Source of the DNA: Microthyrium microscopicum
Taxonomy: Eukaryota
Length of the DNA: 64,000 bases
NCBI GenBank assembly: GCA_010405405.1
Contig: MU004240.1
Span: 510,316 to 574,315 of the forward strand
Reading direction: 5' to 3'
The notes under the pieces were generated by a model, which was not told where the DNA came from, ran no database searches, and was given only the letters and a program-made list of their open reading frames with translations. Positions 21,973 through 64,000 of this stretch are shown here, piece after piece. How positions within the stretch are numbered: position 1 is the stretch's first letter; every line of letters starts with the position of its first letter. Both the position numbers and the translations under genes were made by a program.

Positions 21973-24704
21973 TTAGAACATCACAACAGCAAAGATAGTC
22001 GTAATCATCATGGACCAACCCAGCCCACCAGACATAGACTTGGAAGCACCGTTTGTCTTGTCGCTGGCTGGTGCTTTTGTGCCTGGCTTAGAGCCGCCAT
22101 CAACACAGGTAAAATTTCCACTGGCCACCTTTGACCATGTTGAAGTCACATGGTTGATATCGTCCGCGGTATAAAACAGTCGACAGTCAGCAGATTTGGT
22201 TCGAAATTGTAACGGCACGTCCGAATCGCCGAGGAGATTATCCTTAAAGTTCAATTGTGCATCGCCAGTCCAGATGTTCATCTGAGGAGTGTTCAAAAGG
22301 GCCTTGAGAGCGTTGAGTTGATCACGATTCAAGTACGCGGCTCCTTTTTGATAGAGGGAGGCGACAACATTGGCAACGTTCAGGAGGTTAGAAAGGGTTT
22401 CCACTTGAGAACCCTGCGTGCCTCCAATGACATTCATTTTGTTTTTATTGGGCTGTCCGCCAAATGAAACAGTTGAAACATTGCCTTCATTTATAAGCAA
22501 GTTGGATAGGAGACCGCAGCTTGAAGAGCAGGCACCATCAGTTATCAAAGTGATGTTCTTCGAATCAAAAGCCTGGGGTAGAAGATTAGTGTTGTTTCCA
22601 TATCCACTGATGACAATGGAGCCAGTGGCGAGGTCGTAGGCCATGCTTTTCAAATCCGGGGCGAAGAAATTGGTATAATTGTCTCCATTCATGACCTGTG
22701 GCCCGTAGAAATCTCTCCAGCTGCTATAAGGATTACCGTCAGTTGATTTTAGGTTGTTGGCTGCATTAAACACAGAAGCATCGGCTGCCTCCAAAATCAG
22801 TGTTTGTTCAGGGGCATCGTCGCCAAGGTTAGTGATCTCATTGATGTCATCCATGGTCAGGGCGTCCAGTGTTGAAAGAACAGTACCGTAAGCATCCATT
22901 GCTGGGTGAGCACGTAGACGATGACGAGAATATGCTGGCTGATTGGGAAACAGCTGCTTAAACGTGTCATAAGCGGTACTGATAACACCGCCCGGATTAC
23001 CTCGGACGTCGATGAGGAGCTTTTTCTTACCGCTATCTCTACATGCTTGCAGGAATTTAGAGACAGTGGCTTGGAAAGGAATGTCGGCACCAGCCGCTTC
23101 GCCTGTGAATTGGAAGATATCCAAAACCGCAGTGTCTGGCTTATCAGTGAGAAAATAACCGGCCACGGAGAAGTCAGTGGAGATTGCAACCGGTGATGGA
23201 AATCCTAAAGCACTGAGAAGTGATAGTGTTGCCGAAGCAGATGCACCTTCACTGCTGGTAGCTGTAGCTGTTGGAATCAGGCTTTTTGATAATGGAATGC
23301 TTGAGGTTAGAGGCGGTGAGGTTGCGTCGAGTGCTGGGTTTGCTTTGCGTGGGCTTGCATGCCGTTTCTTGAGTTTGGAAGATGTTGTTGGGCTTCCAAT
23401 CAGATAAGCTTTGTAAATATCCTTGCCACTGGTGATACCTGTGAGGTCAATGTTTGCAGCAGCCTTGTTTGGTAAAGTTGTCGAAGAGCCATTGGCAAAA
23501 GTATACGTCGAGTTGTCGTTGTAGTAATTTAAAGTCTTGATGGCGAAAGAACCGAATGCAGATGAAATAAATGTGGCCGGGTTGTAAAACAGCGAGTTAT
23601 AAAGCGCATCCTTGTCTTGGAGACCTTGCATTTATTAGTATAATCATAAGGCATCAGATCCGAATGTGCATGGTAGAATCCCATAAGTTGCTATGGCCGC
23701 CATCGAGTGCTATGACAGCCATCGAATGCGACCATATTATCTGGCAAAGTCGATTTGAAGCCATCAATCGTATTGCTTATCATGGCGATCTCATCAACAG
23801 TACGTGAAATGTGTTGGTAGGTATGGGAAAACTTACCATCTGGTATAGTCATCAAGAAATCGACAACATCCTGGCTGTCAATCTTCGTAATGGGTGAAGG
23901 CGCGAAACCAGTTGAGTTGATATCGCTTCTAAAGAAGACTTGTGGAACGTCGTTACCATTAGGCGAAATGGAAACAAGTGGTTGCCGTTCGATCAGAAAA
24001 GAACCAATCAGGTATGGAACAACAGACAAATGTCCATCGAAACTCTTTTGTATCAAATTGAAAACGTCCATTTCCATCGTAAACTCTCTGGAGTAAAAGT
24101 TGGCCTTGATTTTGGTAAGAATATCATTGAGGCCTCCAATGATGTCAACAGCAGGCATCGGATATCCAGAAGGAGGAGACTTGAGATATCCTAAAGTCGA
24201 TTGAAATTGCATGAACGTTATGATGTATTGTACCAATTCCGCGGCATCAGCATTGACTAGAATTTGTTAGTATAAACATACGATCGTAGTCAACACCACG
24301 GTAAAATCAAGGTCTTTTTTGGTGGTTCAACCATAGAGCACCCATGGCATCGCGAGCGATCCATAGCACTTAGCTAAGAACGCATCACCTAGTAACCATT
24401 GAGTGCAATGGGGTATACGATTGTTGTCGCTGGAAAGGATGTAGCTTAGAACTGTGATTTGGCACGGGGGAATCTTACCAATTGGTACATCCTGAAGGCA
24501 TGCTAACACCTGTGACGGCTTAAGAATCTTCTTCTTAGTCTTTTGAGCAGCAGCATCAGCCGCGATAATTGCGCAAGGGTTGCTCGAGGAGCCAGAGACT
24601 GCAATGGAAGTCGTGGTCGCTGCTGTTGTCGTCGTTGCTGGTAATGCTATTACACCAGAAAGGCAGGCGCCAACAAGGCCTAGGAAGCTAATTGTGTTCT
24701 TCAT
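21973..24704 (-). CDS. Secreted S41-family peptidase with GPI-like C-terminal signal; 3 exons
   Basis: Signal peptide; FQSTLGYLK, DGHL, LLIDVRGNPGG, ITDGACSSSC and SFGGQP motifs; hydrophobic C-terminus. Introns at 24478-24257 and 23836-23625 keep the frame. Confidence 0.88.
23625..23836 (-). mobile_element. Introner-like intron (212 nt), S41 gene intron 2
   Basis: Donor gtaagttttccc; tandem 19-bp cores gatggctgtcatagcactc / gatggcggccatagcaact; branch region tatactaat; AAG acceptor. Confidence 0.5.
24257..24478 (-). mobile_element. Introner-like intron (222 nt), S41 gene intron 1
   Basis: Aligns end to end with the intron at 62873-63092 in an unrelated gene. Confidence 0.8.
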
Positions 24705-26011
24705 GATCGTGAAAATGGCTTTTTAACAGACACAACCCACGTTTTGCGATCGACCAAGAGCAAAGATTCCCATCCAAAGTGTGAAAAGGTTCCAGACAAA
24801 TATCCGCCTCGACGAAAGCCCAAGCCGTTGTCTTATACTGAACCCAATCCATCGTGATTTTGGTGGAGGCCAAGAAGAAAAAACGCCACACTTACTTGCA
24901 GCAGTTGCTGCGGTTTGTTGACTGCTTTAGAAGCCCCCAAAGGGAAAGAAATAAGCCGCCATCTAGGCCTCTTTCCTTTTTCGCGTAACAATGCTGGGAA
25001 TTTGAGCAGCCAAAGGATTACGACCTGGCCGATGGCCCCTGAGCGCTTGGGAGAGCGAATAATGTCTCCATCATACATTGTGGCATGAAACAAACAACAG
25101 GAGGTGGAAGATGAAGGTTAAAGCGAAAGCTGCGCCTACCAGTACCTGATCAGATCTAGCCAGAAGTAGCTAGCTCTCGAATAAAAATAAACCACGCGAT
25201 GCTTCGTCGAATTCAAGATTTGAAGCTACAGCAGGCCAAGCTTGCCAAGCGTGGCCCCCAAGCAAGCGAGCCACAATTGTGTTTCTTTCGTTGGCCGAAA
25301 ACGCGCCATAGACTCGACGTCCTGCAAAACTATTCGGCTTCAGTGACAACCTTGGAAGCGTAACATCAGAAACTTCAGATACCAATATAAGATGGATGTG
25401 CTGGGCTTTGGGAGCATGACGGTGTGTTCAAACTTCAAATCTATGCACGGATTCTCAATCGGCAACGAGTTGAAAAGTGAGAACACACTACTATTTAATG
25501 GTCCAGCAGTCCAACAGAATTTAGTCTGCGATGACTACAATTCATTGATTCAGAGCGGACCCAATCGACTCATCGAGGCAGCGAGGCAGCGAGGCCGTAA
25601 GCAAACGCGCTTACACAAACTTTCAAAGTGCTTAGTGGCTTGACACATGTGCAGGTTCATTTCAGCTTCTTTACCGTACCCTGGCTTTGCCTGGAAATGA
25701 AGGCTTAATCCTCAGGATTCTTTAAAGTGAGGTATCCTCACCCCCATTCAGACCATCAATGCTCGGTAACACCAATCATTGACGAGATCAATGGCACTCC
25801 CATGAGTTCCACCAACGGGGCTGGCTATCTCCAAGCTTTTGTATAGAACATGCCATATCACCCATCAAATGCGATAATCATGGACATCTCTACGCCCGTC
25901 ATGGCTGAGATAGATTCTTGAGTATCAGCGAGAGAAGCAGAAGAACTTTCACATACTGATCTACCTCTCTATACTGAGAATTTTACTTCATTCCTCGGCT
26001 TGCTGAACATT

Positions 26012-26750
26012 TTAGAGTTTTGCGTTTCCCATAAGGACATCCTTTAGCAGTTTCAACGCTTCTCCTGCAAAGAGGAGCATATTCTCAGCCCGGTCACTAG
26101 ACCCAGTGTTCAATTCTCTTCCGTAGGTTCCCTCCTCACTTGCCACGGCAAGTGCGACAAAGCCCCTACATCAGCAAAAGTATGTTAGTATTGCTTGCAA
26201 TCAAGCTCTCATGCTCAAAAAATTGACGTACGGTTGTCTGTTAGGAGAACTTCCGATCCCAGTGGGTCCAGCGTAGCCACTCTCCCCCAAAGTGTAGCTT
26301 GACTTCATCTGGGCTCTAACATGTTTGGCCATCTGGCCAACGTTGTCTTTTGTTGGGCCTTTGTACGTTGCGACATCTGCCTCCGTCCAGCCGCTATAGG
26401 CGATCCGAGATTGAAGGCTATACAGCTATGCTGGTATGTCAGATGTCTACCGAACTTTAAAGCTGAATGCTAACTACCAAGGATTACATACAGTAAGACC
26501 TCCGCGATGATAGGCGCTCGCACCTGTAATGGCTAGCAAAGATGCGGAAATGATACCTCCCGCAGCCTGGAAAAGACATGTCAGCATCATAGTGAAGTAT
26601 TGAGACTATGAACAACTTAGGTAGAGTGGGACCAGAACGTACGCTCTCAACAACTGATACAGTAGCACCCTTTTCTTTGAGCAGCTTTGCTACGTCCTCT
26701 GCAAGTCGTTGAAGCGGAACTGAAAGAAATGTTTTCGATGTTGTGTCCAT
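26012..26750 (-). CDS. CinA C-terminal/PncC-like protein; 4 exons
   Basis: TVSVVES|AAGGIISASLLAITGASAY..GG, GESGYAGPTG, GFVALAVA and DRAENMLLFAGEAL, joined across GT-AG introns. Confidence 0.85.
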
Positions 26751-27043
26751 GGTTATATTAGGTAAGTCGCTGTATCACCAGAGTCAATCGTTGAACATTC
26801 AAATTGTCCTGGTAATGACCATAAACATAGTGCATACAGCGTCTCTGTTCCCCCAAGCAAGAAACCCAAGCTGTCGGACTATTTTCGCCCCTCAAGTGCA
26901 GGTGGATATGATGGTTGTCGAGAACCGGAGCTAGCGGAAGCTGTGCCTGCCTGATAGACAATTTGAACTGACGAGGAAGCATGTCCCGACCCTTTGATTT
27001 GTCAGCCCTGAGACAACCACACATCATTATACTGTCTTACCTA

Positions 27044-27684
27044 CCATAGCGTGGGAGGGGGGGTAGAGCAAATGATGTTGAATAGTTTCAAGATAGACAT
27101 TTTGGTAACATGAAGTTCAAAATAGTGGCTTAGGAGGCTAGAATGTCTCGAATTAAGATTATTTTTTAACGATGTCTAGCTAGAAGGTGTCTTAGTAGCT
27201 AGGAAGGATCACGATAGGAGATAAAGAAGGAGCAAAAGTCATTATAGGTAGGAATAAGCAAGGGAAGCTTTGGATAGTCTATATATACCAAAAGTGCATA
27301 TTTGCATAATTAGTATTCGTAAACCTAGTAGAACTTTGACTGCTAAATCTTGCTCATAAATAGAATACGAGCCTAACCTAATTCGTAGAGTAAATTACCG
27401 TAATATAAAAAATCCTAGAATGAAGTTTGTTGTCCTTATTTCTACTAAGTAAATTATAACTTAATGCTCTGAAAATTGCCTAAATAGGCTGTTTTTTTTT
27501 AATATCTTATAAAGCTATGACATTATCTTGACATGATTTTTTATAAAAATCCTATTAACTCTTAGTCATAATATCAGAATCTGGTATGAATTCCTTAGGG
27601 GATACAGTGGAGAGAACCCTTTTATAAAATAGTAGAGATATAATAGTAGACATTATTTGCTCTACCCCCCGTTACACGCTATAG
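27044..27684. mobile_element. 641-bp MITE / non-autonomous Tc1-mariner-type element
   Basis: 35-bp terminal inverted repeats (27044-27078 vs 27650-27684; 30/35 matches). TA flanks both sides. The interior is AT-rich and non-coding. Confidence 0.8.
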
Positions 27685-27773
27685 TATTCATAGTCCTTAT
27701 TTGAGGTCCGCAACGACTCCCGCTCTTAAGGTCCGCACCATGTCTAATTCCAAATATTCCAGTCAGTACAGCC

Positions 27774-29306: not shown

Positions 29307-30540
29307 ATGGTTCCAGCAACAACTCGATAGTGGACGTTGGCAGTGAAGCCTACGGGCATGCCGGTTCTATCTGGCCTAAATGCAACTTTCCGACTGGATA
29401 CGAAAACACTTCCACAGCTAGAAGACGATCAGGTATTAATCAAAGTCCTGTACCTATCCAACGACCCAGCGCAGCGAATATGGATCGATCCTCAAATCGA
29501 ACCCGACCGTCTCTACACTGAGCCCGTTGAAGTGGGAGACACCATGCGCGTTTACGGCGCCATTGCGCAGATCCTCAAATCTCCATCACAGGATTTACTC
29601 GTCGGGACGCTTGTATCTTGCACAGCAGGCTGGTACGAGTACGCTGTCATTCCAGCCAAGGACTGTGCTCTTCTGAAGTCTATTGATGGCCTATCACCCA
29701 CTCACCACATGGGCGTCTTTGGCACTCCCGGTGTCACAGCATACTATGGAATGACTGATATCGTAGATGCTAAGCCGAGCGATACTGTCGTCATAAGCGG
29801 AGCAGCAGGGGCCGTGGGCTCAGTTGCTGTACAGCTTGCGAAGAATGTTTTGAAATGCAAAAAGGTGATCGGTATCGCAGGTACCGATTCGAAGTGTAGA
29901 TGGGTGGAATCCCTAGGAGCAGACCTCTGTCTCAACTACAAGAGTACCACATTTAAGGAAGATCTGATCAAGGCGACGCATGGATTTGTTGAGGTATACT
30001 TTGACAACACGGGAGGGGAAATTCTGGATTTGGTGAGCTTTCTTTTTTTCAGATTTATCATACGTGCTGCAGCAGTCGATTACTCACTAAAGTCCTCGAT
30101 GTACCGGTTTGGGCAGGATTTCAGCAGAGTATCGGCTTCTCATCACTGTCCTGGCTAATCCCCCCTTCAACGATTTCATACTAATAGATCAGATGCTCAC
30201 ACGAGTAAAAAGAGACGGCAGAGTGGCTGCTTGCGGCGCCATTGCCGACTATAATGCGACCATGCCATCCGGGATCAAAACTTGGTATCATGTAATCGCA
30301 ATGAGGCTTCGGATTTGCGGTTTTGTGGTAACGGACGCCATTCCGTCGGGCAGGTACTCAAAGATCACTGACGAACTAATTCGAGGTTTCAAGGAGGGAA
30401 AGATCAGAGCAGCCGAGCATGGACAGACCATAATTTCCGCAAATTTCGAGGATATTCCAAAGACTTGGATGATGCTGTTCCGCGGCACCGGCACTGGTAA
30501 ATTGATCACTGAGCTTGCCAAACCCGACTTTACTCAATAG
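29307..30540 (+). pseudogene. NADP-dependent MDR oxidoreductase (prostaglandin/alkenal reductase-like) with in-frame stop at codon 8
   Basis: Reads MVPATTR*WTLAVKPTG. Motifs YLSNDPAQR, SGAAGAVGS, YFDNTGGEILD, CGAIADYN and GKLI are present. Intron at 30032-30192. TAG at 29328-29330. Confidence 0.8.
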
Positions 30541-33392: not shown

Positions 33393-34391
33393 ATGCTTTT
33401 CACCCAGACCATCCTCGCTGTTATCAGCTTCGGCGCTGTCGCCATGGCCCAGAACCGTGGTGAAATCGTACGATCACTACACACTTACACCTTCTGATAA
33501 TGTTTTACTAATGCATCTGTAGCGCCAGGGACATCAAGAAATCCGTCAGGCAAGCTTGTTTTTTCTGATCTGATGGCAATGTTATACTAACAAAGCTCAG
33601 GGTAGAAATGATATCAGACAGGGTCGGCAGTAAGTTTTAGTCGCTGCGTGTGGTTGTTGCGCTATATCACAAATTGGTCAAACCCGACCAGAATGATATT
33701 TTAGCTCATCAACCGCCAACACTGCACAATCAAGCGATTAGAGGCTAACAAACACGCAGAGATATCCGCCAGGTACTACTTTCCGAGCATCTTCGTCAAC
33801 GCCAGGGCACTCGATGGTTCCCATCGTTTGCCCTGTGTCCTGTCACCAAAATATGAGAACAACTCTTCGAAGAATCTTATACTTACCTCTTACAGGGACA
33901 TTACGATATCAACCACGGTGAATACCGCCAAGTAAGTCACAAATTAACATTCAATGTGATTATGAACTAACAAATTTCAGGGACGCCAAGGTACGACTCT
34001 GCCGTTTTGAAACCTTCATCAGTTCCGGCGTTGTTTGATATTCTGTCAAATGCCTCCTAAGCGATGCTGGGACCCTCAAACCAATCCTGAGTGTACACTA
34101 ACGACGTCGTAGATCTCCGCCAGGGACATCAGGACATCAGACAAGTAACTAGGACCTCTCCTTCGACTAAGTTATATGCTAATTAACTCTAGGGACGCCA
34201 AGACGTACGCCAGGGTCGCCAGGAAGTTCATGAGTACGAATTTCCCAATCAGAGTGCTGTTGTTGACTGATGAGATGCCATTGAATGGCATTTCGGCACA
34301 TCGGCAGCAACATCTCAGTCATGAGCCCACACTAACAATCTTCAGTGGCCGAAACCAAGGCAACTACAACAACAACGGACGTCATTACTAG
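33393..34391 (+). CDS. Small secreted heptad-repeat protein (102 aa) encoded by 9 micro-exons
   Basis: Exons 33393-33467, 33523-33549, 33601-33629, 33760-33772, 33896-33931, 33981-33990, 34113-34144, 34193-34233 and 34346-34391 total 309 nt and splice to one open frame. TATA-like TATATAAA lies at ~33276. Confidence 0.85.
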
Positions 34392-35302
34392 AAACTTCCT
34401 TGGGAATGATGGCTTCGGTCTAGAGAGTGCACTGGGGCACTAAACAAAAACTTCACTTCGTCTTGGTATCTACCTTTTATATTTTGAATACAAACCTTTT
34501 GATCCTTAAACCGTTCTTACCTTCATTGGCATTGGATAAGTAATATATTGGGTGCTTTGTGTTGACGTTGATTGAATATTTTTTGATAGAGCCAGAACAA
34601 CCACAGAGACACAAGCTCGCCACAACAAGCTCAAGGGGCAGGGCTCAAAATATACTCTCCTACAGTCCTTTGAAGCATTACATGACCGGTAGCAAAATAA
34701 TTGGGCCAATTCCGTTCAGAATGAAAGGTCGTCGTGTACTGCGCTCTAGTTCAGGGGCTTTGTTTACTTTTAGTGATGGATCACTATCAGGCTCCAACTA
34801 GTATATTCTATTCTGTATGCATAATTCAAAAAGATTATGATGTTCAACAAGATCAACTTCGAAGATTCAGTTACTCTTTCATAAAGTTCGGGGAGGTATG
34901 TCGCTATTTTTGGCAAAAACGATATTTTCAGATCTCATGTGACGTAAGAGACCTTGTACCAATGGTAGCACAGATTAAGTAACTCCATAACTAACTTTAT
35001 GTCGGAGAGGTTATCGAGGTGCTAGCTCTTAAGCTGGTAACAAATTGCTAGGGCATAATTCACTGATGTTGTCGAGAAATGTTGCAGTGATGCTGTCTGA
35101 ATAAAGAAGGTAATTAGGGGATTTGACAATACATGGTGATTAGTGGTAATCTGAAAGTACGATTTTTGCTGTGGAAAGCATTACCAAACTATGGCATAGA
35201 TTATGATTTGACACGGTACCCATCTTAAAAGGTTATCTGCTTACAAAATGTCGAACAATTCAGAGTTTGAACTTATTCCGTAGATAGGACGATGTGGCCT
35301 TT

Positions 35303-35925
35303 GCACTCGATGGCTCCCATCGCATCACATGGCTCCCATCTGACCTGAATAAAATATGAGCAAAAAGCAATTGAGCTTCCTCTTGTTATTCAAGCTTAGG
35401 GAAACTATTGCCATCGCATCCGATGGCTTCCAGAACATTCAATGGCTCCCATAGCATGATATGGAACCCACCCCATTTTTCATAGTATTAAGCAAAATCT
35501 CAAAAGCTGGTATACTCTCTATAATGTCAGTATCGGCATCAGGCTCAAACCCCCATCCCATTATACATGTATGTCGCCCATATTACTTGGTCAAACCTTG
35601 AGCAGATTTTGGCAGAAAAGAGAGATTTGCACTTCAGTGGCTACCTACTATCTGACTCAATAATTCGTGCAGCACATTGTGGATTTTTTGACCCAAAAAG
35701 TCCTACAAGTTTTTTATTCTACCAGATAGAACGTTGGAAGCACATTCATCCAGATTTCAATAACAGAAGTCATCTTTCGGCGCATTTGATGGCTCCCATC
35801 GCATCTGATAGTGCACATCGAGGGTAATTGAAATCTGCAGAAATCCTCCGTCTGCTTCTCATTATCTTTTTGATCATGCTCCCATCGCACTCGGTGATCT
35901 CCACAGCAGGCTATGGATTCTGTCA
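35303..35925 (+). repeat. Clusters of a 19-bp unit (gcactcgatggctcccatc consensus)
   Basis: Tandem pairs or triples at 35303-35340, 35416-35472, 35782-35819 and ~35868-35924. The core CGATGG-ctc-CCATCG is self-complementary. Confidence 0.75.
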
Positions 35926-40317: not shown

Positions 40318-41697
40318 CTACTTTCTTGCTCGTCTCATGAGCTCCGCAGCTCCTCTCGCTGGGGCATATATCACATCCCAATAGTCTAGCGGAGGATCTC
40401 CTAGAAAAGGCGCTCCCTCATGTATCGCATTTCTCAATGCTTCCAGGAAGAAACGCTCTAGAATTTTGTCTCCATGCATGATTACCAAAGTTGGCTTCAC
40501 CTGTCAGTCGTTAGTTACACGTTTAGACCGTATCAAACGCTAAAAAGAGCGAGATAAAACTATAATATCCAGGCCAGCTCCACACGCTAAATCGGCGGTT
40601 TCTGACCTCATGATATCGCATCGCACTTCTTGGCTACCATCGAGTACGATGGAAGCCAGGTGATGCGGAAAAGGCTATCAAGGTTTCGACTAATCTCAAG
40701 GACACAGGTCGCAAACAGGAAAATCTTACATCGTCTTTTCCTCTTTGCTCAACGACCCTTTTCATCTCAGCTTCCACGTCTTTCCAAAACTGGCGGGATT
40801 CTGGCGCGTCATTGCTCGGATCGGCCGGTCTCGCATCAAACCCGAGATCGAAGTTTTCGAAATGTTTGTCTTCCTCGCCGTCTTGCGCAGAGCGTTTTCG
40901 AGTCAAGGATGTAGTCAAGGCGTTTCCAGAATAATGCACTGTATATACATCATATTCTTCCATCTCTTGTTCTTCACGACGACACTGCTCCTCCCAGTCC
41001 CAACTTTTGCACAGGCCATGACCATATCCAGCAAAAACTGCTTGGGTTTCATAGACAATAGGATTTTTTCGATCTGGCCAGGGAAAATATGCTATGTTGG
41101 CTTGTGAACACGCCTCTATCAGATGGTCTTCGGTCAATCCTTTCAAGTGAGGAGCAATGACTGCGATTTCTGTCGGTCGGAACCCAAGGTATGTTTCAAC
41201 TTGCAACAAAAGCAAGCTAATCATCTTTGCAAACGGTGCAATATCTAGGCTTTTTGGTGAAATATTGGCCCGAATCTGATTTGATAATGTTTTCTGCCCA
41301 ACGCTTAGCTTTGTTAGTAATCATATGGCAGGCATTGGAGATTAGACTTTTACTGTGTATAAGGTGCTGGTTGAATTGACAACTGAGCCATTGCTTCTTT
41401 ATATTCTGCTGGTGCTTCTGCTCCCGTAAACCAATGGTCCTCTTCATTTGGGTAAGTCACCCAGATTGCACTTGTTAGGTTTTAGTTTGATTGTCAGAAT
41501 GACTTGGAACTCGCATACCCATAAGAAGTGGACAAGTCGACTGCAACATGGACCTTTTCGTAGACAAAGCTGCTCCTCTCTGATCGAGGATCCGGAACAT
41601 TCTTAAGCGCGGCACCTTCCACGCCTGTTACTATCTGAAGTGCTACCCAGCTCGTGCTCATAAGCCGAGACACAACAAATGCCCAGCTGAACCGCAT
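40318..41697 (-). CDS. Hypothetical fungal protein; 4 exons
   Basis: Exons join in frame (AVDLSTSYG|AIWV..., AVFAGYGHGLC, ...GKDD|VKPTLVIMHGD, YAPARGAAEL). Hydrophobic N-terminus. Function not recognised. Confidence 0.65.
40501..40729 (-). mobile_element. Introner-like intron (229 nt)
   Basis: Shares the donor region (gtaagatt), the core ccatcgagtacga and the 3' region with the introns at 62873-63092 and 24257-24478. Confidence 0.65.
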
Positions 41698-44975: not shown

Positions 44976-46013
44976 ATTGTGAGATCTGTGTATGGGTAGG
45001 AGTTGTTGTTTTGTAGATTCTGATTGTCGCCTCGCTGTCGTGTCTGCATAGAGTCTTTAAAGATCAGAGGTGACGTCCTTGACTATCGGACATGAGACGC
45101 GGGGGCACGTGAGCTGATCCTTTAGCGTGAGAAAGGCAATAAGGCACGTTGATTGGTGCAGCATCACGTGTGCACCCATGCATGTTTCAACTCAGTTCAG
45201 TTTCAAGTCTGCCAAGAACAACAATAACATCACCTTCTACTATTCACAATTACGCTTTCATTCTTCGGGGGTCTACCTATATACCTTTGTCCATATCTTC
45301 TCGGAATTGGAATAGCACTCCACGCTGTGAGGCTATGACACGTAGAACATCTGGCGTCGCGGCTTCGCTTGCTGCATGAAACAACATCAAATCCTCATTG
45401 AAACATACCGTCACCCAAGAACTTTTCTTGGATCTGATCTCGAGTCACTTAAGGATGCAGTGTGCATCTGACGAAGTTCTACAAATTTACAGCGTAGGGC
45501 CTATTTTGAAATAAGCTAATGTGGAACACTACAATATTGAAAATCTGACGACTTGCAAGCTCTTGAGGTTTACAATCGAGTTTTATGACAACCATCAAGT
45601 GCGAAGAGAGCCATCAAATGCGAAGGAAATGTTCATCCAGTGAGTAGACCTTAAGGTACATGAAGGCTCTTGATAGTGACCGGCCAGGGCGGCCACTTGA
45701 GCAAAACTAAAAGTAAGACAACAGCCACCCTGGATGCTATAGGCCGTCATTTGTGTTAGCAGCCTGAATTCAACTTGATTTAAGCCTAAGTACATCTGAT
45801 CGTGCCTCATTTTTGGTCTTGATCTGCATGACATCAAAGTGCTTGAACAGGCAACCATTTGTATCAACTTCATTCACAACTCCATTGCATCCCTCTCCTT
45901 ATTGGACTCATATCATCGCACAAGTAATTCACTTCCACCGATAATAAGGTATGGACCAAAAGTAGCCCATACAATTGCCTGGAACAGATACGGGAGTGAA
46001 AATTCACTAAGCC

Positions 46014-49099: not shown

Positions 49100-51306
49100 A
49101 TGAAAATGGTCAAAAAGGCAGTGGCATATGCACCGCTCTCACCCAAACCCAGCCGATTGTATGTGTCTAGGAGCAAATAGTGAGAGATAGTTGGAACTGC
49201 TAACTCCATCTCAGGTTGACTCTATGGTGGTGGGAATTGCTTACCTGGGTACTTGGGACCTCAGCCACCGGAGCTATCTTTGCAATTTTGATATTTTACA
49301 GCGACAAAGCACAAGATCAATGGCGCTCGAACCTCAGCATGAATGCTATACTATCCGCTCTCTCCCAGCTAGCTCAGTCGGCATTAACAGTATCAGTCAC
49401 GGTGGGCATCGCCCAACAAAAGTGCGCATGGTTTAGTAAACAGAGGAAAATCAAAGATCTCAATCTTTTGGATGACGCGACTAGAGGGCCGGAAGGAAAT
49501 CTACGTTTTCTCATCAATCTCCCTTCAAGATATGGCTCCAAGGTCTGGGAATGGTCAAGTTTTCTCGCATCCATTGGCGCCGTCATTGTCCTGCTGATGC
49601 TCACTTTTCAGAGCTTTGTTCAGCAGGCGCTTCAAATCGAGCAACGCGACGTAACGGATGCTACTCCAGCGTATATTCCTGCTTTGACTAGCTTCGATAT
49701 CTTTGATGGGGATGGATATGGCCCCACGGGTACGTAATTATGGCATGAGCCTACTTCTGATCGTTCATGCCGACTAAATTGTTCCAGACTGCGTTTATGC
49801 TGGAAGCGGTGGTACAAATTGCAAGGGAGATATAACCCCGATCATGGAATCAGCTATAGAGAATGGATTCAAAGGTCGCGACGTTAAGATTGCCAGTCCC
49901 CCTGGACAGTGCTCCACTTCAAACTGCAGATGGGACTCCTATCAAACCCTTGGCTTCTGCTCATCCATCCAGGATATTTCAAACGACGTTAACAATTGGA
50001 CAGTGATTGCCCCTTCTTATCTTTATGCTGGGTATGACAAGGAAAACAAGATCAAACGCGTAGGTGACGATAATGGACGAAATAACACTGTTTGGTTCAC
50101 ATCCGTTTCTCCGGGAGGTATTGGGTATCTCAATGAAACGGATGCTCCCAACAGTTTATTATTCGAAGTTTACTTGATCTATACAAACCATCTCGAATTT
50201 ACGGCCTCTCCTCCATTAGTGCTCGCAGCAAAAGGCACAGTCTCCCTATGCGTACGCACACACCAAACCACCATTTCCAATGGTATCATGAACACAGAAG
50301 CGGTGGGCCCAGGTCAAATACTCGATCTCTGGAAAGCGACAGGGCTATGTGGTCAGGCGTCCGGCAATCCGACGCGGTATTGTGCCTCAGAGTTGGGTAT
50401 TCAGAATCTTCGAGGATACATATCTGGAGCCGACTTTAAAGGGAGCGCGAATTTGAAAAACCAGATGGCTGGCGACGATTATTACGGCGGCAGAGGTCGA
50501 ACCATGTTTTCAGGTAAGCCATTCTGTTGCACTCAAGTCTTGAAATATCGTGGGAGAACTCGGTGTTACCGATTTTGTCAAGTCGGTTCCATCTTGACTG
50601 ATCGTCCAACCCAAGAAAATCTAAGCTCCGAATTGCGCGAGATACTGCTATCACATTTCAAAGCTCCCATTGAATGCGATGGCTCCCATGGCTCAGCATG
50701 GCAATTTAGCATGGAAAGATGAATAAGATATTCAGGGCGTGTTAGCTTTGGACTTTGATCTCGCAATAACATGCTAACACATTTTAGATCTGTATCCACA
50801 AGGAGGGACGCAGCTCACAGAGAAAGATTTGGCAGATGTCAAAGGTTTCGAGAAGCGCATGGAAAACATTGCCATCGAAATGACCAACTCGTAAGTAAAG
50901 TACCTTCCACCGAAACGTTCGGCTTGTTCGACAGCATTCTGAGCTCACTCAAAGTATCATGATCCGCGCTCAACAGAATAAGACCACAATCCACACTCAA
51001 CTCGCTAGAGGAATCGCACTGAGAACGGAGTCGTACTATAAGGTTGAGCTTTACTGGCTTGCAATGCCTGCATTTGTTTGGCTTCTATGCACGATTCTGT
51101 TTTGCTCAACACTTGTACAAGCTTCCCGTGGGTTGTCTCCGATTTGGAAGTTCTCACCGTTAGTGCTTTTGGATTGTGAGGATGGGACATCTGGGTCGCT
51201 GAATGATGTTGCGGCAAACCATAAGGAGACCTATGCTCAGGTGAAGCCGTGTAAGAAGGCTGCGGGAGCTTGGAGATTGGAAAGAGAGACGCGCACAATT
51301 CTGTAG
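49100..51306 (+). CDS. DUF3176-like membrane protein; 5 exons
   Basis: WWWELL, IAQQKCAWF, DDATRGPEG, FQSFVQQ, CSTSNCRWDSYQTLGFCS, NIAIEMTN and PIWKFSPL; GT-AG introns restore the frame. Confidence 0.75.
50514..50787 (+). mobile_element. Introner-like intron (274 nt)
   Basis: The 5' end resembles intron 40729-40501. It contains gaatgcgatggctcccatg and shares a 3' gtgttagctt with intron 63092-62873. Confidence 0.55.
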
Positions 51307-52297: not shown

Positions 52298-52432
52298 GGA
52301 TGTAAGTTCCATGGCGACACACCCCTTTTGATGATTGAAGTTAAAGCATGTATGACTAGCAAAAGTATCAGGACTGGGAGGGACCGAAGGCTATATCGCT
52401 GAGATGGGTTTGAAGCGAGGATCGAACGTAGT

Positions 52433-53731: not shown

Positions 53732-55929
53732 TCAGGAGGATGTGAGAGAGGAATTGCTGTTATTTGATGGAACAATGGGTGAGTTATTGGTACATGGTTT
53801 GAATTTCGGAAGTTCAAGGTTGCGAAGGAGGATTATTTGGGGTTGGTTGCGGGTTGGAGTTTGAAGGTGGCGATTGAGTTGATGGATGGTTGTAAACAGT
53901 GATTGACGCGAGGCGCGATGGCGGGAATTGACCAATCAGAGGGTAGGAGCGACTGGGAGCCATTGATTTGGATGAGTTCAGTTAAGCCAGAGACCAAATG
54001 GATAAGTAGAAAACGCTTTTCAGCCTGAAATGACCTTTCCGAAACAATCCCTAGGTTCGGTTATTGAAGTTTCTCAAAGGGTTGGTTCTCCGGAAGAATG
54101 CTGCCTAGTCGTCCTTGAGTATTCGCGTTTCAATTATTACCAATTTTTCGACGACCAACCCGGAATTGCATGTTTTTGAAAAAGTTTCAGGAGCAATATT
54201 AGCGACGAATCATTGGAACATAAATTGTTGTTATAAGACGGGTCATTTTTTTCATTCCCTGTTGATTCAGTGATAGAATCAGCAATGCATCAGGCATGTG
54301 TACAAATCTCAGTATAGGGCCAGCAACAAAGCACTCGTTCGATAGAACGGCACCCGTTCAAAACGATACTACTCAAGATTACCTTGTATATTTGATGGAG
54401 GTGAATCAACATGGCCTCTATTTGTGAATAATAGTTGGGGACGTATGGCAAGAAGGTGATCCAAAGGATGATAGGCGCTTGAAATGAAGCTACGGTACGA
54501 ACTTCAAGACCGATGGATATAATCTCCGTATGTTAGTCGCCTTAATGTCAGATTTGGTCAATGTCAAAGTAGACATGAAGTTAGAGGTGGCCAATGAGAT
54601 CAAGTGGCTACGGAGGTAGAGGTTGAATTTCTCGATGTCCAACCACATGTCGTGATCTGATTCGATGAATGCATATAGTCTCATAGCACTCGGCGATTGC
54701 CTTAGAATGCATTTCTGAGCGAGTGCTTTGGTCGCTAGCGCACTTGATGGTCGCGGCCAATGCTAAAGGCTCGTGTTCATTAGCACAAGCATGCTTGACA
54801 TCTGGCATGGAGAGTGACGAATAAGTGCGAAAAGAGATGTTGAGATTGGTCTCATAAGAGCAGATTTTGAAGATAGAGTGCAGTATATTTAAAAACTAGT
54901 TGATTTTATGATTGTTAATGGGATGAAGTTGGAGACAAGATGTCGTTAAATTTAACAACAACGTTTTTGGTAAAGGGAAGGAGCTGCCGATCGCCAAGTC
55001 AACCAATAGGAGCAATGAAACAACCCAACATTTTCGGTGGATGCTAACAGGCGCGATTTGATGCAACCTCTGGAAATAGGGTTGCGATCCGCCTAATTTT
55101 TAAGACTATCAATTTGCGCAACCACATTTTATGCATCCTCTGGCATCATTGAGGATCGAGTAGAAGTTATGCAAATCCAAACTATTCTGAGAGTATAGTA
55201 TATCGACAAATGACTCGAAGGTAGCATGGAGTGTTTGCTTCCTTTGCAGGACTGAGAAGACAGGTAGTAGAATAGGCTAAACCACTTCGGGGCAAGACAG
55301 GGCAAAAGGCAGCAGGTGCGAACCAGTCCCAGCACAGAGCACTCCACAGTCCGCTGCATCGCCCTTTCCCTTTCTGCTGGCTGCCTCTTGCTGTCTGTGT
55401 CCATCATCCATCCATCTCCCCATTGCTCCTTCCACCTAAACCTCCTACACCTACACCTCCACCTCAATCCGCCTACTCCCAGTCTTCGAGGCTCCTCCCT
55501 ACATCTCCTATATCGCCTGATATACCTCCAAATAAACATCTTGCCGCCATATACCGATACCTTGGTGCTAAGCTGTACATTTCACTTCCCAGCCCCTCTC
55601 CATAGCGAACATCAAGGGTACCATCTCTCCCTAGCCTGGCCACACTCACCCACCCTTTCTCGCCTCTTCATCCTTCCGAATCGCTGCGATATTATGTCCA
55701 GCCATTCAATCGAGGATCTTTAGCTCAATCGCCGTCTACTCAGCCTCTTTTACCATTCCATATACTCCGCAATCATCCATTGCGGTTTTCCCGGCCTTGC
55801 CAAAGAAATACTTGATATCTGACCTGCGCTGGTCTTTATCCTTATATTGGTGCCTACAAAGGCTGCCATTTCTAATAGATCGCTTTTCCATCTATTATAC
55901 AATCGATAACCCCTACACAACTCGCCAGC

Positions 55930-58900: not shown

Positions 58901-61330
58901 GAAGATGAACCTCGTCCGGCGCTGAAGACGCTTAGATCCATTGTGACCGAAGGTGAAAAAATTGATGCGTCGTGGCCACTACAACGTCTTGTCGAGCTAA
59001 AAGAGTTTGTAGCTCGCTGTAATGCGTGGGTCGAGGAGGCTACAGCTTTTACAGCTCGCAAAACTGCTGGACGACGAAAAAGCGAGATGAGATCACGCGG
59101 GTCCATCTCGGAGAAGAAGGCTGAAACTTCGGAGAGCAAGAAGGATGCTCTGCGAAATCCAGAGAACATCAAGAAGCTCCTCAAATCTGCTGCGGACCTT
59201 GGCTTCGAATGTCCGGAACTGGAAAAACTTCATGAACGCTGGGACCGAATCAAGGATTTCCGCAAAAAGGCTCGTACGGCTCTGGATCGCCCTCATATTA
59301 CAGCCAGTGAACTCACCGAAGTCATCGATGAAGGCAAGGATATTGATATGGATCTGCCTGAAATGAAAACCCTGGACATCCGAGTACGAACAGTTCAATG
59401 GTTTGCTAATGCCAAGGATTACACTGACAAAATGAGCCAAGGCAGCCCTCTAAGCCTAGACGAGCTAGTGGAATTTATCGAGGCTGGCAAAGTCCTGGAA
59501 ATTCGGGAAGGCAACGATTTCATGGTCTACTTTAACCAACAAAAAACCCAAGGTGACTTTTGGGAATCCAAGGCCAAGGAAATCATGTCCATGGAAGCCG
59601 TTAACTTTCATCAGCTCGACGCCCTCTATAAGCAAGCTTCTCAGCTACCCGTATCACGAAACACTCTCTCTGCCATCGACGAAATGCTTAAGAAACAACG
59701 CGAGGCCCAGGAACGGATCATGATTTTATACGAGCGCACAAAGAGCCTAGAATTCCGGGACCGGCCGAACTACAAGGAGGTACGAGATACTATGGAGGGG
59801 TTGGCAGAGATGAACAGCAAGCCTCCAGGAACACTGGATCTGGAGCGGGAACAAAAGCGCCACGAAGACTGGATGCGTCGCGGAAAGAAACTTTTTGGAA
59901 AAGCTAATGCGCCTCTTCACATTTTGCTTCAGCACATGCAATTTGTGCAGGAACGAAATGCTGCATGCCTTGATTTGTCTGATAAACCTAGAATGCCAGT
60001 GGAACCTGCTTCTCGTGAACAAACTCCAGACGAACCAGCTTTTGAAGAAGCACATGGATCTAGTCGCGATGTTTTCTGCATTTGTCGCAAACCAGAATCT
60101 GGTATGATGATTGAATGCGAAATGTGCCACGAATGGTATCACGGACGTTGCCTCAAAATTGCTCGTGGCAAAGTCAAGGAAGATGATAAGTACACTTGTC
60201 CTATTTGCGACTATCGCGTCAAAATTCCTCGTGATGCGGCTCGACCCAAACTCGAGGAACTTTTGCAATGGCAAGATGAAATCTATAATCTACCTTTCCA
60301 GCCAGAGGAAGAATATGTCTTGGAGGAAATCATCAATGTCGCTCAAGAATTCAGGATCGCCATCGGATACCTCATCAATCCTGTCACTAGCACTCCAGAT
60401 GATCTTCCTGTTCAGCGGTTCTTCCTTCGCAAGATTGAAGGCGCAGATGTTCTCCTTACGGACGAGACCAATTTCCTACGCCAAGCAGTCCATCGTTGCG
60501 CTCCAGTTGCTCCAGAACCACCAAGAATGATTGAGGTATCTTTGTCTACTCGCAAGCCACGACCTACCAAGGCCCAGAAACTTATGAGCAAGATGGGTGT
60601 CCAAAGCATCGATGATCTTCCCGAAAATCTACGACCAAAAGCGCCAAAGAATCGCAAACATCCTTACCCAGATGGCCATCGCTCTGGAAAAGGCTCTATC
60701 CCTGCCAATCCTTCATCAAATGCCAAACCAGGCGAGTCTATATCGGTACCTACGACCTACGCTGCGAGTCGAATCACGTCGTCAGCTCACAAAAACTCTC
60801 CTTCCTTATCTCACTCAGCACGAGGATCGACATCAACAGCAAACTCCAACAACGGCAATGACGGTACACCCACCTTTGCCTTTGACACACCTCCCATGCG
60901 AGAGCAGAACCACACTCCAGTCACCAATTCCGCTCCCTTCGTCACAAATCCCGCCTCGCCGCTCTTCGACACCTACGGCCCTCCTTCCGGTGAGCCATCT
61001 CGAGCGCCATTCGCGAACCCTGGTACATTTCGGGCAGGCAACTCTATTGATCCGCAACTCGATAATCTCTTTGCGCATCCGAGTGGGTTGCATAGTGGTC
61101 TTCATAACACGACTTCACCTGAGCATGACCATTTAGATCCCAGTCTCATGACAACTGCCGGCGCAATGGCTAGCTCCATATCTGGCTCTATGGCTGGCGC
61201 AGCTAAGGACGCGTCTGAGAGCATGGACGACCATCTATTTGGCTCGTTGACTAATGGCGGCGAGGACTATGATATGTTCAATGGGCGCGATACGGATATG
61301 GAGGATGCTGATGATCGAGGGCGCTACTAG
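55930..61330 (+). CDS. KDM5: JARID1/KDM5-family H3K4 demethylase (Lid2/KdmB-like); 3 exons
   Basis: JmjN (APTFRPTEEEF), ARID, PHD, JmjC (FCWHNED...YHAGFNHG), C5HC2 finger, PLU-1 and a second PHD. Introns at 56347-56393 and 56443-56489. Confidence 0.95.
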
Positions 61331-61819
61331 GATCAGTGTTGATGAGAGATGATTATATGGCATGGTGGATTGCGCTGATATGATCATAATTCTTCATCCA
61401 TCATCGGGCATTTACAGGGCGGTTCATTGTGATGCAGCGATTGGCGGTAGTGTATTGATGGTTGTAACTACCAGATATATGTTTACCGTGCCAACGCTTC
61501 ATCATTGGGTGCGGAAATTATCTTTTATATTGCATGTTTTTCTTTGCATTTTCATGGTTGGGGGATGGGTATACCACTTGATCAATATTGTACTTTAGAA
61601 TGACTTCTTTAATATGTCTGAGTCAACTCTCATGCTTTTGTCAGCAACGGAAAAAACGGGGGTGGGAAGGGAGAAAACCGTGTTATTCAGTTTTCGGATG
61701 TTGTGTGTGTGATTTACTGTCACTGTATTGTACTGCTTGTTGCAAGGGAGAGCAGATAAAGTTCAATGAGAAATATCTAATCATGCTGTTCACATCCACT
61801 ACTTCCTTCCATGTTGTAT

Positions 61820-64000
61820 TCATCTGTATACTCGTCCTGCGATTGGCACACCAACAGCTCCGGAACTAAAGCCACAGTGTCCAGCACCGCTTATGCTATC
61901 TTCGCTCAGTACTCCCCATCTAACCTTGCCATATGGTCCCTCTTCATCTTCGTCTAGCAAGTCCCTCTTCTCGCCCTCTTCTCCTTTACGCGCGGCATGA
62001 CACGCTGCTGCTATGCCAGCGCTACAACTACCAACCATCGGCATTCCGCCGTCCACTCGTCTCATGCCTACAGCTACTACGGCAGCTGCACCGACCAGTC
62101 CTACAACTAGCACGGCTACGAGTCCAATTGGCGCATATCCTGTACCCAACTCATCGAACGCCCGAAACCGTCCACCAAATCGGTCAAAAGCTTCTACGTA
62201 TACGAGGAAAAGCGCTTGACTTGCCAACCAATGAAGCAGCGCCGCACTACCTAGCAATGGGATCGCCGTGCGCAGTGGCAACGCTAGGAGATAAGATGTT
62301 CGCTGAGCGCCATGCGCGTCCGCAGAAACCCTCAATCCCTTCGGCGTGGTAGCGAACCGTGACCAGGAAGACGCAAGATGGAAATTCGTTAGCAGAGATG
62401 TCGTGAACAGATGGACGATGCTGAGAATAAGTTGCGGTGTATTAGTTAGCAGGACGTTTAGCAGGAGTCCACGGGCGCCGGATTGGGGAAGGGCGGTGGG
62501 GAGGATGGTGCGGTCGTCGATTGTTCCTAGGCCTAGAGCGAGGAGGGCGCGGGGCGTGGAGGAGTCGAGGGCGTGGAGGTCGCGGAGGGAGAGGATTAGG
62601 AGGACTAGCAGGCTGATGAGTGTTGTGAGGACGAGGGTGGTGGTTGTGTAGAGGCGGCGTGGGCTGGCGGATTGGTAGCGGCGGAGGGGGGTGAGGGAGT
62701 AGGTTTGGTGGAGACTGTGGAGAGTAGACCAGATGGGCTGGGCGGTTATGGTACTTGCTGGGAGGAGACACATGTTAATGGTATGGGGGTCGGGTGTGGT
62801 CATGAAGCTGGCGATGGCATCGCCGAGGGTTAGGAGTGGAGGGGCTTTGACGAGAGCGACGGCGACGTAGGCCTGGAATCTGTTAGTATAGAATTAGATC
62901 GAAGCTAACACTATGAAAAGATCAAATGGTCTTTTCGTAGTGAGATCGTCGAATACCGATCACTTTCGATGCGATCCATAGCACTCGGTTAGGAACGCAT
63001 TCTATGGTAGCCATCGAGTACGAAGAGAGGCATGACTGTTTTTATTCCGACGAATGTCGTTAACGAGTGGGGTTTGGGCCGGGGAATGTTACCATTATGA
63101 CAGTTTTCACCAGGTTTAGGACAATGACGGTAACGCAGATATGTAGACTCGTTTGCAAACGGCAGCGTTCGGGGACGATTTCAGATAAACAGTGCTTTAC
63201 GCGCGCACCAAAGGGGGTCCAATTGTTCTTGATTCTGTCAATGTTGCCAGAGCATTTAAGCGTGCCGACGGATGGGAGTTGTGCGCAGACCCAGTTGGCG
63301 AGCGGATGGTATTCGAGCGTGATTCCTAATGGACTGGAGATGTATGGCTTGTAGCGGTGAGTGGCATTGAGCAAGTGTTGTTCCTCTACGATTAAGAGGG
63401 CGCCTCGCTTGGTTGGATATGCGTTGCTATATGCGGTGATACAGTCCTGGGGGTTGAGATATTCTAGGACGTTGTAGGCTGCGAGGAATCGGAAGCGTTC
63501 AGCAAGGGTTTCGGCGTCGGATTGGAGACGAAGTTTTTCGGATCGTGTTCCGTTTTCGCGCAGGTCGTCGTCAATTGTGTTTAAATCGAATTGTATAGGC
63601 GTAGTGGAATTGAGAAATTGACCGTCGGAAGAGAGGATGTCGTAATCACGTAGAGCTAATGAAGTGAACACTGCCGAGTTGTAACTGAGAAATATTAGCC
63701 AGATTATCTGTAGTAGATATTTGTTGACTTTATACAAGAGATGAAGTGGAAGAGATGAAGCCCCTAGAAGTATCCATAGAAAAGCCCGCTTACGACATAT
63801 ATATCGCAAGTTCTTGAGGCTGATATTGCCAATTGAAAGCCACTGGTTCTTGGAATGAGCTATATCAACATCATGTCGAGTAGGTGCAGACAATATCTGC
63901 ATAACGTAGCTACTGGCTCCCAATAGTACTGTACTCAGCAGATTGATTAGGAGATGCAGACCGAGACTGATGTTTTTCGTTTTCTTGCAACTTCCCTCGA
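61820..64000 (-). CDS. DUF6536-like multi-pass membrane protein, 5' end beyond the window
   Basis: LHLLINLLST.LLGASSY.MQILSAPTR, SSLPLHLL, LLTLGDAIASF, NTPQLILS, KGLRVS, QRTSYLLALP, HWLASQ and GSCSAGIAAACH. Confidence 0.8.
62873..63092 (-). mobile_element. Introner-like intron (220 nt)
   Basis: Colinear with intron 24257-24478 from donor to acceptor; splicing gives KTVIM|AYVAV in frame. Confidence 0.8.

Follow-up and report, generated by a model that had tools for sequence, protein, structure and literature searches.

Can introns that lie in unrelated genes be copies of one and the same element? This question is raised by a stretch of 64,000 nucleotides of contig MU004240.1 (the window) of Microthyrium microscopicum, a Dothideomycete of the order Microthyriales, in which a preliminary description had listed five introns, here called A to E, as members of an introner-like family (Table 1). 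Introner-like elements (ILEs) are the best documented source of new fungal introns, and they are recognised only while their copies are nearly identical. Work by van der Burgt et al. in 2012 is said to have described the ILEs of Dothideomycetes. The claim that such elements are known from this class of fungi agrees with the excerpts of two later studies that describe ILEs in Dothideomycetes (PMC4457414; PMC3609843).

Table 1. Introns, copies and core-motif sites discussed in the text (positions are those of the window)
Feature	Positions	Strand	Description
Intron A	24257..24478	-	222 nt, phase 1, first intron of the S41/CPAF-like peptidase gene; full-length member
Intron E	62873..63092	-	220 nt, phase 0, DUF6536 gene; full-length member
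Copy H	54622..54872	+	between SLX1 (-) and KDM5-like gene (+); full-length, decayed
Intron B	23625..23836	-	212 nt, phase 1, second intron of the same S41 gene as A; diverged, two core units
Intron C	40501..40729	-	229 nt, phase 0, hypothetical-protein gene; diverged member
Putative intron D	50514..50787	+	274 nt, phase 1, downstream of DUF3176 exon; weakest listed member
Putative intron F	33773..33895	+	123 nt, putative boundaries; one core unit (GCACTCGATGGTTCCCATCG)
Core-unit array	35289..35471	+	19-nt period, no recognised gene; repeat families D9, D12
Second core-unit group	35726..35919	+	same gene-free stretch as 35289..35471; E = 1.6e-4 to 4e-3
Core-only fragment	45569..45628	-	two or three units, upstream of HET gene; E = 2.3e-6 to 1e-3 by profile

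Global alignment of introns A and E from donor to acceptor revealed 142 identical positions among 220 aligned columns (64.5%), with identity spread evenly along the length (59, 66 and 68% over successive thirds) and a K2P distance of 0.50. None of 200 dinucleotide shuffles equalled the score of this alignment (z = 15.9), and the pair was also recovered by blastn (E = 1e-8, 69.5% identity across 151 nt), being the only one among the window introns to pass the BLAST threshold. After trimming of the donor (6 nt) and of the terminal 16 nt, and with 400 random window segments as the null, the global score stood at z ~12 and was equalled by 0/400 segments. The ends taken by themselves (40 nt adjoining the donor and 40 nt 5' of the branch point, each against 1000 random 40-mers) outscored 1000/1000 at both sides of the intron. 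At the donor the homology comes as close as 6 nt, at the other end it reaches the branch point, and nothing is left over that could be an unrelated older intron. It stops at the exons, as flanks of 100 nt per side were no more alike than shuffles, and the Pfam domains of the two host genes (S41/PDZ_CPAF_rel in one, DUF6536 in the other) show no relationship. A 15-mer common to the two introns (24356-24370 in A, 62971-62985 in E) lies 99 and 98 nt, respectively, from the acceptor ends of the introns (24257 and 62873), and a profile of the remaining members recovered held-out A at E = 8.7e-7 and held-out E at 2.3e-6. The coordinates, quoted strings and 15-mer distances of the preliminary description were all correct, and its central claim, of an alignment that runs from splice site to splice site between unrelated exons, was upheld; the refuting outcome that it had named, scores no better than those of shuffled introns, did not occur. 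On the evidence of their sequences, A and E are homologous whole introns in unrelated genes and are introner-like.

Introns A and B are spliced in an assembled contig (X5) that we presume to be RNA; this label is a guess, and none of the sequencing runs is on record as RNA. X5 is identical to the window in every matched letter, runs directly from 24256 to 24479 and omits the 222 nt of A (CT..AC on the plus strand) as well as the 212 nt of B, while DNA contigs retain both introns, so that the RNA check of junctions that had been called for, as run for A and B, found both of them missing from the presumed transcript. The comparison with X5 spanned one 20-kb stretch, without cover at ~31.8-35.1 kb (F) and 39.8-41.8 kb (C); D, E and H lie outside this stretch. 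Protein comparisons support the junctions of introns C and E. For C, a database protein that is 100% identical (P0001) reads ..GKDD/VKPTL.. through the junction (slash), and a homologue (P0002) aligns over it free of gaps. For E, tblastn placed residues 90-367 of the homologue P0005 at 63998-63093 and residues 368-718 at 62872-61823, and a further homologue (P0021) likewise abuts at the intron boundaries; the Pfam domain DUF6536 falls in the exon upstream. Putative intron D is defined by signals only: it has a canonical GTAAG...CTAAC-7 nt-AG arrangement with frames open on both sides, and no homologues of the exon upstream of it were found among longer or similar-length proteins. As a side observation on the DUF6536 gene, seven short representatives of its homologues begin with a methionine whose position is precisely that of the last exon 1 residue in this gene, and this methionine is also conserved internally in longer DUF6536 homologues.

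The five listed introns are also set apart by their length and by the position of the branch point. Their lengths of 212-274 nt compare with 46-66 nt for five short RNA-confirmed introns, much as had been claimed for them; one unrelated intron of 160 nt (ADH) is also present in the window. The spacing from CTAAY to AG is exactly 7 nt in 5/5 listed introns, versus one of the four short RNA-confirmed introns that have a CTAAY (7, 9, 12 and 16 nt); the fifth short intron is without this motif.

Searching the window by nhmmer with a profile of A and E retrieved an additional copy, H, between two genes (E = 1e-4, profile positions 7-128). The three-way alignment of A, E and H extends to the 3' end, and H has both end regions and the core; a score equal to that of its 5' 40 nt against E was reached by 5/1000 random segments. 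Copy H contains an insertion of ~45 nt and its splice signals are decayed, with a donor that reads GTTGAA and the CTAAC branch point missing, and it was not retrieved by the five-member profile that was built without it. By alignment, H is a third full-length copy that lies outside any recognised gene, and it strengthens the introner-like reading.

The remaining introns appear to be weaker relatives, which share with the pair mainly a palindromic core of ~19 nt. In the trimmed global test, scores were equalled by 0/400 random segments for A-B and E-C, by 2/400 for A-C, 7/400 for E-D, 20/400 for A-D and 24/400 for E-B, and putative intron F gave 0/400 against A and 1/400 against E. The unrelated ADH intron, used as a control, was at the null in the trimmed (196/400 and 251/400) and end-only tests. 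The 3' 40 nt of C against E were equalled by 0/1000 random 40-mers and those of B against A by 5/1000; neither end-only test of D was significant (77/1000 and 95/1000). Leave-one-out profiles retrieved B (E = 0.017) and C (E = 0.0037) solely via the core motif, and these two may hold an insert within an older intron. When D was held out, its 3' half (50667-50784) aligned to profile positions 87-219 and kept the register of the acceptor (E = 8.5e-4). The claim that B, C and D share ends or core with the pair is therefore borne out for the core and the 3' ends of B and C and for the register of the 3' half of D, but not by the end-only tests of D.

The core motif itself is a palindrome (CGATGGCTCCCATCG) that occurs 19 times in the window versus 0.59 expected matches, a count that 0/100 shuffles equalled. 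The middle third of the element is made of inverted copies of this ~19-nt unit (..GCACTCGATGG / CCATCG..). Units were also found in DNA without recognised genes, as two groups at about 35 kb and as single units at 45.6k, 42.07k and 32.9k. The first of these groups resembles the core of B, C and D, with an nhmmer E of 4e-12 to the corresponding part of the profile, and extra DNA contigs of the source sample map to it; other contigs of this sample have only short stretches in common with the window at motif sites. Given its arrays and lone units outside introns, the core may be able to move or expand by itself. Scanning metagenomes for GCAYTYGATGGCTCCCATCG retrieved two loci (L001 and L002), which we took to be chance matches and not relatives, as neither is like the window beyond the motif and neither fits the A+E profile.

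The ends of the copies were examined for traces of transposition. No TIR was found in 6/6 copies when the first 30 nt were compared with the reverse complement of the last 30 nt (local scores 3-6), and no direct repeat of at least 4 nt flanks the boundaries in 5/6 copies. The sequence TAGAG, which stands on both sides of H, was rejected as a TSD because chance alone would yield ~0.3 5-mer matches of this kind over the offsets that were compared; the preliminary description had likewise seen no consistent TSD or TIR. No coding capacity was found in the family copies. The introns had also been proposed for folding, and this check yielded a mixed outcome: a central hairpin with 27 pairs is predicted for both A and E, and at 6 of these pairs both bases differ between the introns (in two sequences only), but the predicted folds are not unusually stable, with z values against 200 dinucleotide shuffles of -0.84 (A), -0.95 (E), -1.5 (B), -1.6 (D) and -2.3 (C). 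A small RNA hosted by the introns (a snoRNA or the like) was considered and rejected, since no Rfam family reached its gathering score anywhere in the window or E <= 1 within 23500-24600, and the tRNA scan found no tRNA-like gene.

Several lines of evidence point to old copies and to a family that is hard to recognise. The best pair within the window is only 64.5% identical, and no near-identical copies of A were found in the DNA contigs of the source, which at a likeness of at least 80% give single-contig depth. Dataset S1 of Gozashti et al. (PNAS 2025, PMC12130899) records 0 introner families for Microthyrium microscopicum GCA_010405405.1. Their screen called for at least four introns from different paralogy groups, clustered at a BLAST e < 1e-5 and with similarity reaching both boundaries, and in the window A/E alone reaches such a value (blastn E = 1e-8). 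These figures agree with the great age that had been ascribed to the family. The suggestion that it may be undescribed also stands within the literature on Microthyrium introns and introners, in which we found nothing on Microthyrium introners, nothing on this topic in the titles and abstracts of papers on Microthyrium microscopicum introns, and nothing on the motif strings. The window was picked because it holds these introns, and its density of about five copies in 46 kb is not to be extrapolated to a large family across the genome, as the preliminary description had done.

We estimate a probability of roughly 70% that A, E and H descend from one introner-like element of ~220 nt, of which B, C and D would be more remote copies; all would be old and diverged, and together they would form a degenerate family of a known kind. 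The ends of such an element would carry its own splice signals, namely a donor GTAAG or GTAAC followed by ATTYYCC and, on the 3' side, a TACTAAC-type branch point with the acceptor exactly 7 nt beyond it. Because the element would bring these signals along, an insertion in a transcribed gene would be spliced out by the spliceosome and do little harm, and the inverted core units in its middle third could pair as a hairpin. Selection would have kept the splice signals in the genic copies (A and E; more distantly B, C and D), while the non-genic H would have lost them. We infer that the introns arose by insertion, that is, by intron gain. The balance tips slightly towards copying by way of RNA, as has been proposed for ILEs under the names of reverse splicing or 'spliceosomal retrohoming', a mode favoured by the lack of TIR and TSD; insertion at the DNA level, which copy H and the core-only fragments keep possible, is less likely. 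A far broader reading strikes us as rather unlikely, namely that the core with its hairpin serves an as yet unrecognised superfamily of ILEs as the module for mobility or recognition, and that an ancient burst of this superfamily seeded at least a tenth of Microthyrium introns. Such a burst would be invisible to BLAST-based introner screens but traceable by profiles, and the non-genic copies would reveal the appearance of the element when selection for splicing is absent.

The behaviour of the core could also mean that a small palindromic repeat, a 19-nt unit with its arrays, has spread in non-coding DNA and landed in pre-existing introns, so that the long introns would each be an old intron plus an insert. 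Arrays and single units do occur where no gene is recognised, the core of B, C and D finds a match (E = 4e-12) in the array at 35.3 kb, held-out B and C were retrieved through the core only, and other source-sample contigs share only short stretches at motif sites. We nevertheless hold this to be improbable, given that the A/E homology runs nearly from donor to branch point and leaves no older-intron remainder, that copy H holds both end regions besides the core, and that likeness outside the core extends to the 3' ends of C (0/1000 against E) and B (5/1000 against A).

A single or low-copy duplication, in which one intron was copied once from one of the two genes to the other, for instance by reverse splicing, with the likeness of B, C, D and H being a coincidence of the common motif, is more doubtful still. 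It would resemble the 'low-copy introns' of Collemare et al., and duplicated introns of this sort in unrelated genes are reported for most fungi surveyed in the excerpts of PMC3609843; A/E is moreover the sole pair above the BLAST threshold (E = 1e-8), and the published screen, which needs at least four members, gives 0 families here. Against this stand the third copy H, which was found at E = 1e-4 by a profile of A and E only, and the match of held-out D in register with the acceptor; the low-copy introns described in those excerpts are, in addition, near-identical and of ordinary length, whereas the present ones share 64.5% identity and are about four times as long as ordinary introns. Hardly any weight is left for chance, shared splice-signal constraints or base composition as the source of the likeness. 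Introns do have donor, branch-point and acceptor motifs in common, and the tests of D were marginal (7/400, 20/400, 77/1000 and 95/1000), but the A-E score without these signals (z ~12, 0/400), the unrelated long ADH intron scoring at the null, and 19 motif matches versus 0.59 expected all speak against it, and for A and E the sequence comparisons have already refuted it.

Among known systems, the family most resembles ILEs, which occur in the same class of fungi, have canonical spliceosomal signals, show whole-intron homology between unrelated genes and are longer than regular introns. The whole-intron homology of ILEs that stops at the exons is found here for A/E, in part for B and C, and weakly for D. 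To our knowledge, ILEs, too, are without TIR or TSD. The closest case is that of the 'highly degenerated ILEs' reported for Septoria musiva in the excerpts of Collemare et al. (PMC3609843, PMC4457414), and ILEs, like the family here, decay until they are hard to recognise. The presence of A and B in one S41 gene recalls ILE genes with two members, as excerpts of Collemare 2015 (PMC4457414) mention four genes with two gained ILEs each. ILEs differ, however, in having tens to hundreds of near-identical copies per genome (here 64.5% for the best pair and none of at least 80% for A) and in folds more stable than expected, whereas the predicted stability is not significant here; also unlike ILEs, the present family has a full-length copy and core-only arrays outside genes and a defined 19-nt palindromic core. 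Microthyriales are absent from the ILE host species named in the excerpts of PMC3609843 and PMC4457414, and the family is set beside ILEs by description and not by sequence.

The likeness to transposon-derived introners (PMC12130899) lies in element ends that coincide with intron ends, in similarity that stops at the exons, and in copies both in and outside genes; these introners and MITEs differ by the TIR, TSD and coding capacity that were not found here. The same study places Microthyrium among the genera without a horizontally shared ascomycete introner. In the Hypoxylaceae, sister stwintrons and the canonical introns related to them, as described in excerpts of PMC8469720 and PMC9024468, are also similar introns with internal symmetry in unrelated ascomycete genes. 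According to these excerpts they are nested twin introns with terminal symmetry and belong to Sordariomycetes, whereas the ends of the introns described here are not inverted repeats.

Even at ~65% identity the family can thus still be traced, and this in a genome where systematic screening recorded no introners; a copy outside genes and a defined motif at the core accompany it. At present this represents a modest extension of known biology. If many copies were to exist genome-wide, past bursts of intron gain in Dothideomycetes would be commoner than BLAST-based screens show, and the family would allow the decay of such introns into ordinary ones to be studied.

The introns that interrupt the S41/CPAF-like peptidase gene (intron A) and the DUF6536 gene (intron E) can be aligned over their full length, donor to acceptor, with gaps in two columns and identical bases in 142 of 220 (64.5%; K2P distance 0.50). 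Identity is evenly spread over the intron (59, 66 and 68% by thirds), and the global score exceeds 200 dinucleotide shuffles by 15.9 standard deviations. With the donor (6 nt) and the final 16 nt trimmed, the score was matched by none of 400 random window segments, and the 40 nt adjoining the donor and the 40 nt preceding the branch point each scored above all of 1000 random 40-mers. The exons, examined over 100 nt on each side, showed no likeness beyond that of shuffles, and the two host proteins are, by Pfam, unrelated. Since the likeness reaches both ends and the exon flanks are unlike, the homology is, on sequence comparison, that of the complete intron, ending at the exon borders. The preliminary description had claimed just such an alignment between unrelated exons; its coordinates and quoted strings for the five long introns were all correct, and the comparison with shuffled sequence bears the claim out.

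Coordinates of family introns, related copies and core-motif features, with the two host genes
Feature	Position	Strand	Length	Setting or evidence
Intron A	24257-24478	minus	222 nt	S41/CPAF-like peptidase gene
Intron B	23625-23836	minus	212 nt	S41/CPAF-like peptidase gene
Intron C	40501-40729
Putative intron D	50514-50787
Intron E	62873-63092	minus		DUF6536 gene
Copy H	54622-54872	plus		between SLX1 and KDM5-like gene; A+E profile, E = 1e-4
Core array	35289-35471			19-nt period; DNA without recognised gene
Core array	35726-35919			19-nt period; DNA without recognised gene
Core fragment	45569-45628
Single core units	near 32.9, 33.8 and 42.07 kb
S41/CPAF-like peptidase gene	21973-24722	minus		Pfam
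DUF6536 protein gene	61820-63998	minus		Pfam

Splicing of introns A and B is observed in a contig of run X5 that has no differing letter from the window: it joins 24256 to 24479 and 23622 to 23835, skipping both introns (CT..AC borders, plus strand), and the same stretches are uninterrupted in DNA contigs of the source sample. X5 behaves as spliced RNA, since it also leaves out five short canonical introns (46-66 nt) and, in the alcohol dehydrogenase gene, a 160-nt one. As had been noted from the sequence, family introns are longer than most (212 and 222 nt for B and A versus 46-66 nt for the five short RNA-skipped introns). The junction of intron C is read across as GKDD|VKPTL by a database entry that matches one exon at 100% identity and is named as a hypothetical protein of Microthyrium microscopicum; a 41%-identical homologue crosses the junction without a gap. 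For intron E, full-length DUF6536 homologues match the window in two parts that adjoin one another in the protein; in the homologue P0005, residues 90-367 reach down to 63093 and residues 368-718 resume at 62872, the intron borders. Putative intron D carries canonical signals and is bordered by open frames on either side; neither a homologue nor RNA supporting its splicing was found.

One X5 contig, of 4213 nt, covers 22500-25596 in the pieces listed. Joints of equal depth across 22500-26231 include minus-strand-type ones (CT..AC) at 23.6, 24.3 and 26.2 kb and one of the plus-strand type (GT..AG) at 25597-25654, which could reflect a chimeric assembly or overlap between neighbouring transcripts. 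Intron E is immediately preceded by a Met codon that is conserved in homologues, and seven database representatives start exactly there, perhaps because their gene calls are truncated, perhaps because a true shorter form without the DUF6536 domain exists.

Introns B, C and D are, by sequence, more distant relatives than A, E and copy H, a further full-length copy. Their clearest common feature is a core unit of ~19 nt on the palindrome CGATGG..CCATCG. Trimmed global scores were reached by 0/400 random segments for A-B and E-C, 2/400 for A-C, 7/400 for E-D, 20/400 for A-D and 24/400 for E-B. The unrelated, RNA-skipped dehydrogenase intron (30033-30192), our long-intron control, scored at the null here and in every other test. 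Leave-one-out profiles recovered intron A at E = 8.7e-7, intron E at 2.3e-6 and D at 8.5e-4, the last by a match of its 3' half that keeps register with the acceptor; B (E = 0.017) and C (E = 0.0037) matched only via the core. Outside the core and canonical signals, the 3' end of C resembles that of intron E (0/1000 random segments) and the 3' end of B that of A (5/1000), and the ends of D show no significant likeness. The CTAAY-to-AG spacing is exactly 7 nt in all five listed introns; in the short RNA-confirmed introns, CTAAY occurs in four of five, at 7, 9, 12 and 16 nt, and is missing from the other.

Copy H was traced to its 3' end in a three-way alignment with A and E, beyond an insertion of ~45 nt. 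Outside the core and canonical signals, 5/1000 random segments reach the score of its 5' end against E; a five-member profile leaving H out did not recover it. It has GTTGAA at the donor and has lost the branch point, the look that would be expected of a copy without splicing selection.

The core is not confined to introns. Allowing up to 3 mismatches, the 15-mer CGATGGCTCCCATCG has 19 matches in the window (0.59 expected; 0/100 shuffles reach this count), and contigs from other places, in the source sample and two other runs, match the window only at short core stretches. In A and E, inverted core copies are predicted to pair into a central hairpin; of its 27 pairs, 6 differ on both sides between these two sequences. 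At 33630-34010, where neither a Pfam match nor RNA cover was seen, canonical-looking introns alternate with a series of apparent exons, ~13-40 nt long, of which several end in ..ccgccag or ..ccaag; putative intron F, in this series, contains a core unit.

The AT-rich block at 1-18000 (15-27% GC) holds none of the 19 core matches. It carries a tandem array of 61-nt period (~831-1562) and a 300-nt repeat pair (6486-6785 and 14862-15161, 91% identical), and looks like RIP-degraded repeats adjoining the gene-dense part. The latter, at ~46% GC, encodes a typical Pezizomycotina set by Pfam on long open frames (besides the two host genes, P450, Zn2Cys6 factor, alcohol dehydrogenase, IPP-2, queuine tRNA-ribosyltransferase, HET, DUF3176, thymidylate kinase, SLX1 and KDM5-like demethylase). 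Directly upstream of the Zn2Cys6 gene is a 645-bp MITE-like element (27042-27686) with 37-nt, 86% complementary TIRs and TA at each outer end; it lacks the core motif, is partly covered by RNA contigs, and gathers up to 7 (X1) and 10 (X2) contigs of the source sample at >=80% likeness.

How might such introns have spread? The element ends coincide with the splice sites; donor, branch point and acceptor would all be brought along, and a copy landing in a transcribed gene would be excised by the spliceosome. TIRs were found in none of six copies, and five of six showed no flanking direct repeat, in agreement with the earlier remark that no consistent TSD or TIR is visible; TAGAG flanking H was rejected as a TSD, being at chance level. 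This double absence fits the RNA-mediated route proposed for introner-like elements (ILEs) in the available portions of PMC3609843. Copy H lies outside recognised genes and core arrays stand free, so DNA-level insertion is also a possible route; either way of copying is one that we infer. Inside the elements, neither a known RNA family nor a tRNA-like gene was found. Folding of the introns, put forward in the preliminary description as a check, gave predicted structures of no unusual stability (z −0.84 to −2.3).

At >=80% likeness, DNA contig depth over A in the source sample equals its single carrying contig, so no close copy of A is seen, which is not proof of absence as the filter may drop records. 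Because the window was flagged for these introns, their density here does not extrapolate. The screen of Gozashti et al. gives this assembly (GCA_010405405.1) 0 introner families, and requires clusters (BLAST e < 1e-5) in which 4 or more introns of different paralogy groups are similar up to both boundaries (PMC12130899, as far as the accessible text goes). We found no literature linking Microthyrium with introners or containing the core motif strings.

In the sections available of PMC3609843 and PMC4457414, ILEs are roughly double the length of ordinary introns, have predicted structures that are stable, and decay fast, and in Septoria musiva are reported only in highly degenerated form. The present family resembles them in fungal class (Microthyrium microscopicum belongs to the Dothideomycetes, order Microthyriales), whole-intron homology, length and decay; unlike them, as far as testable, it shows neither near-identical, numerous copies nor clear structural stability. 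On these shared traits and differences, and set against published ILEs by description, we regard it as an introner-like family in degenerate form, within a known kind, not a new one.
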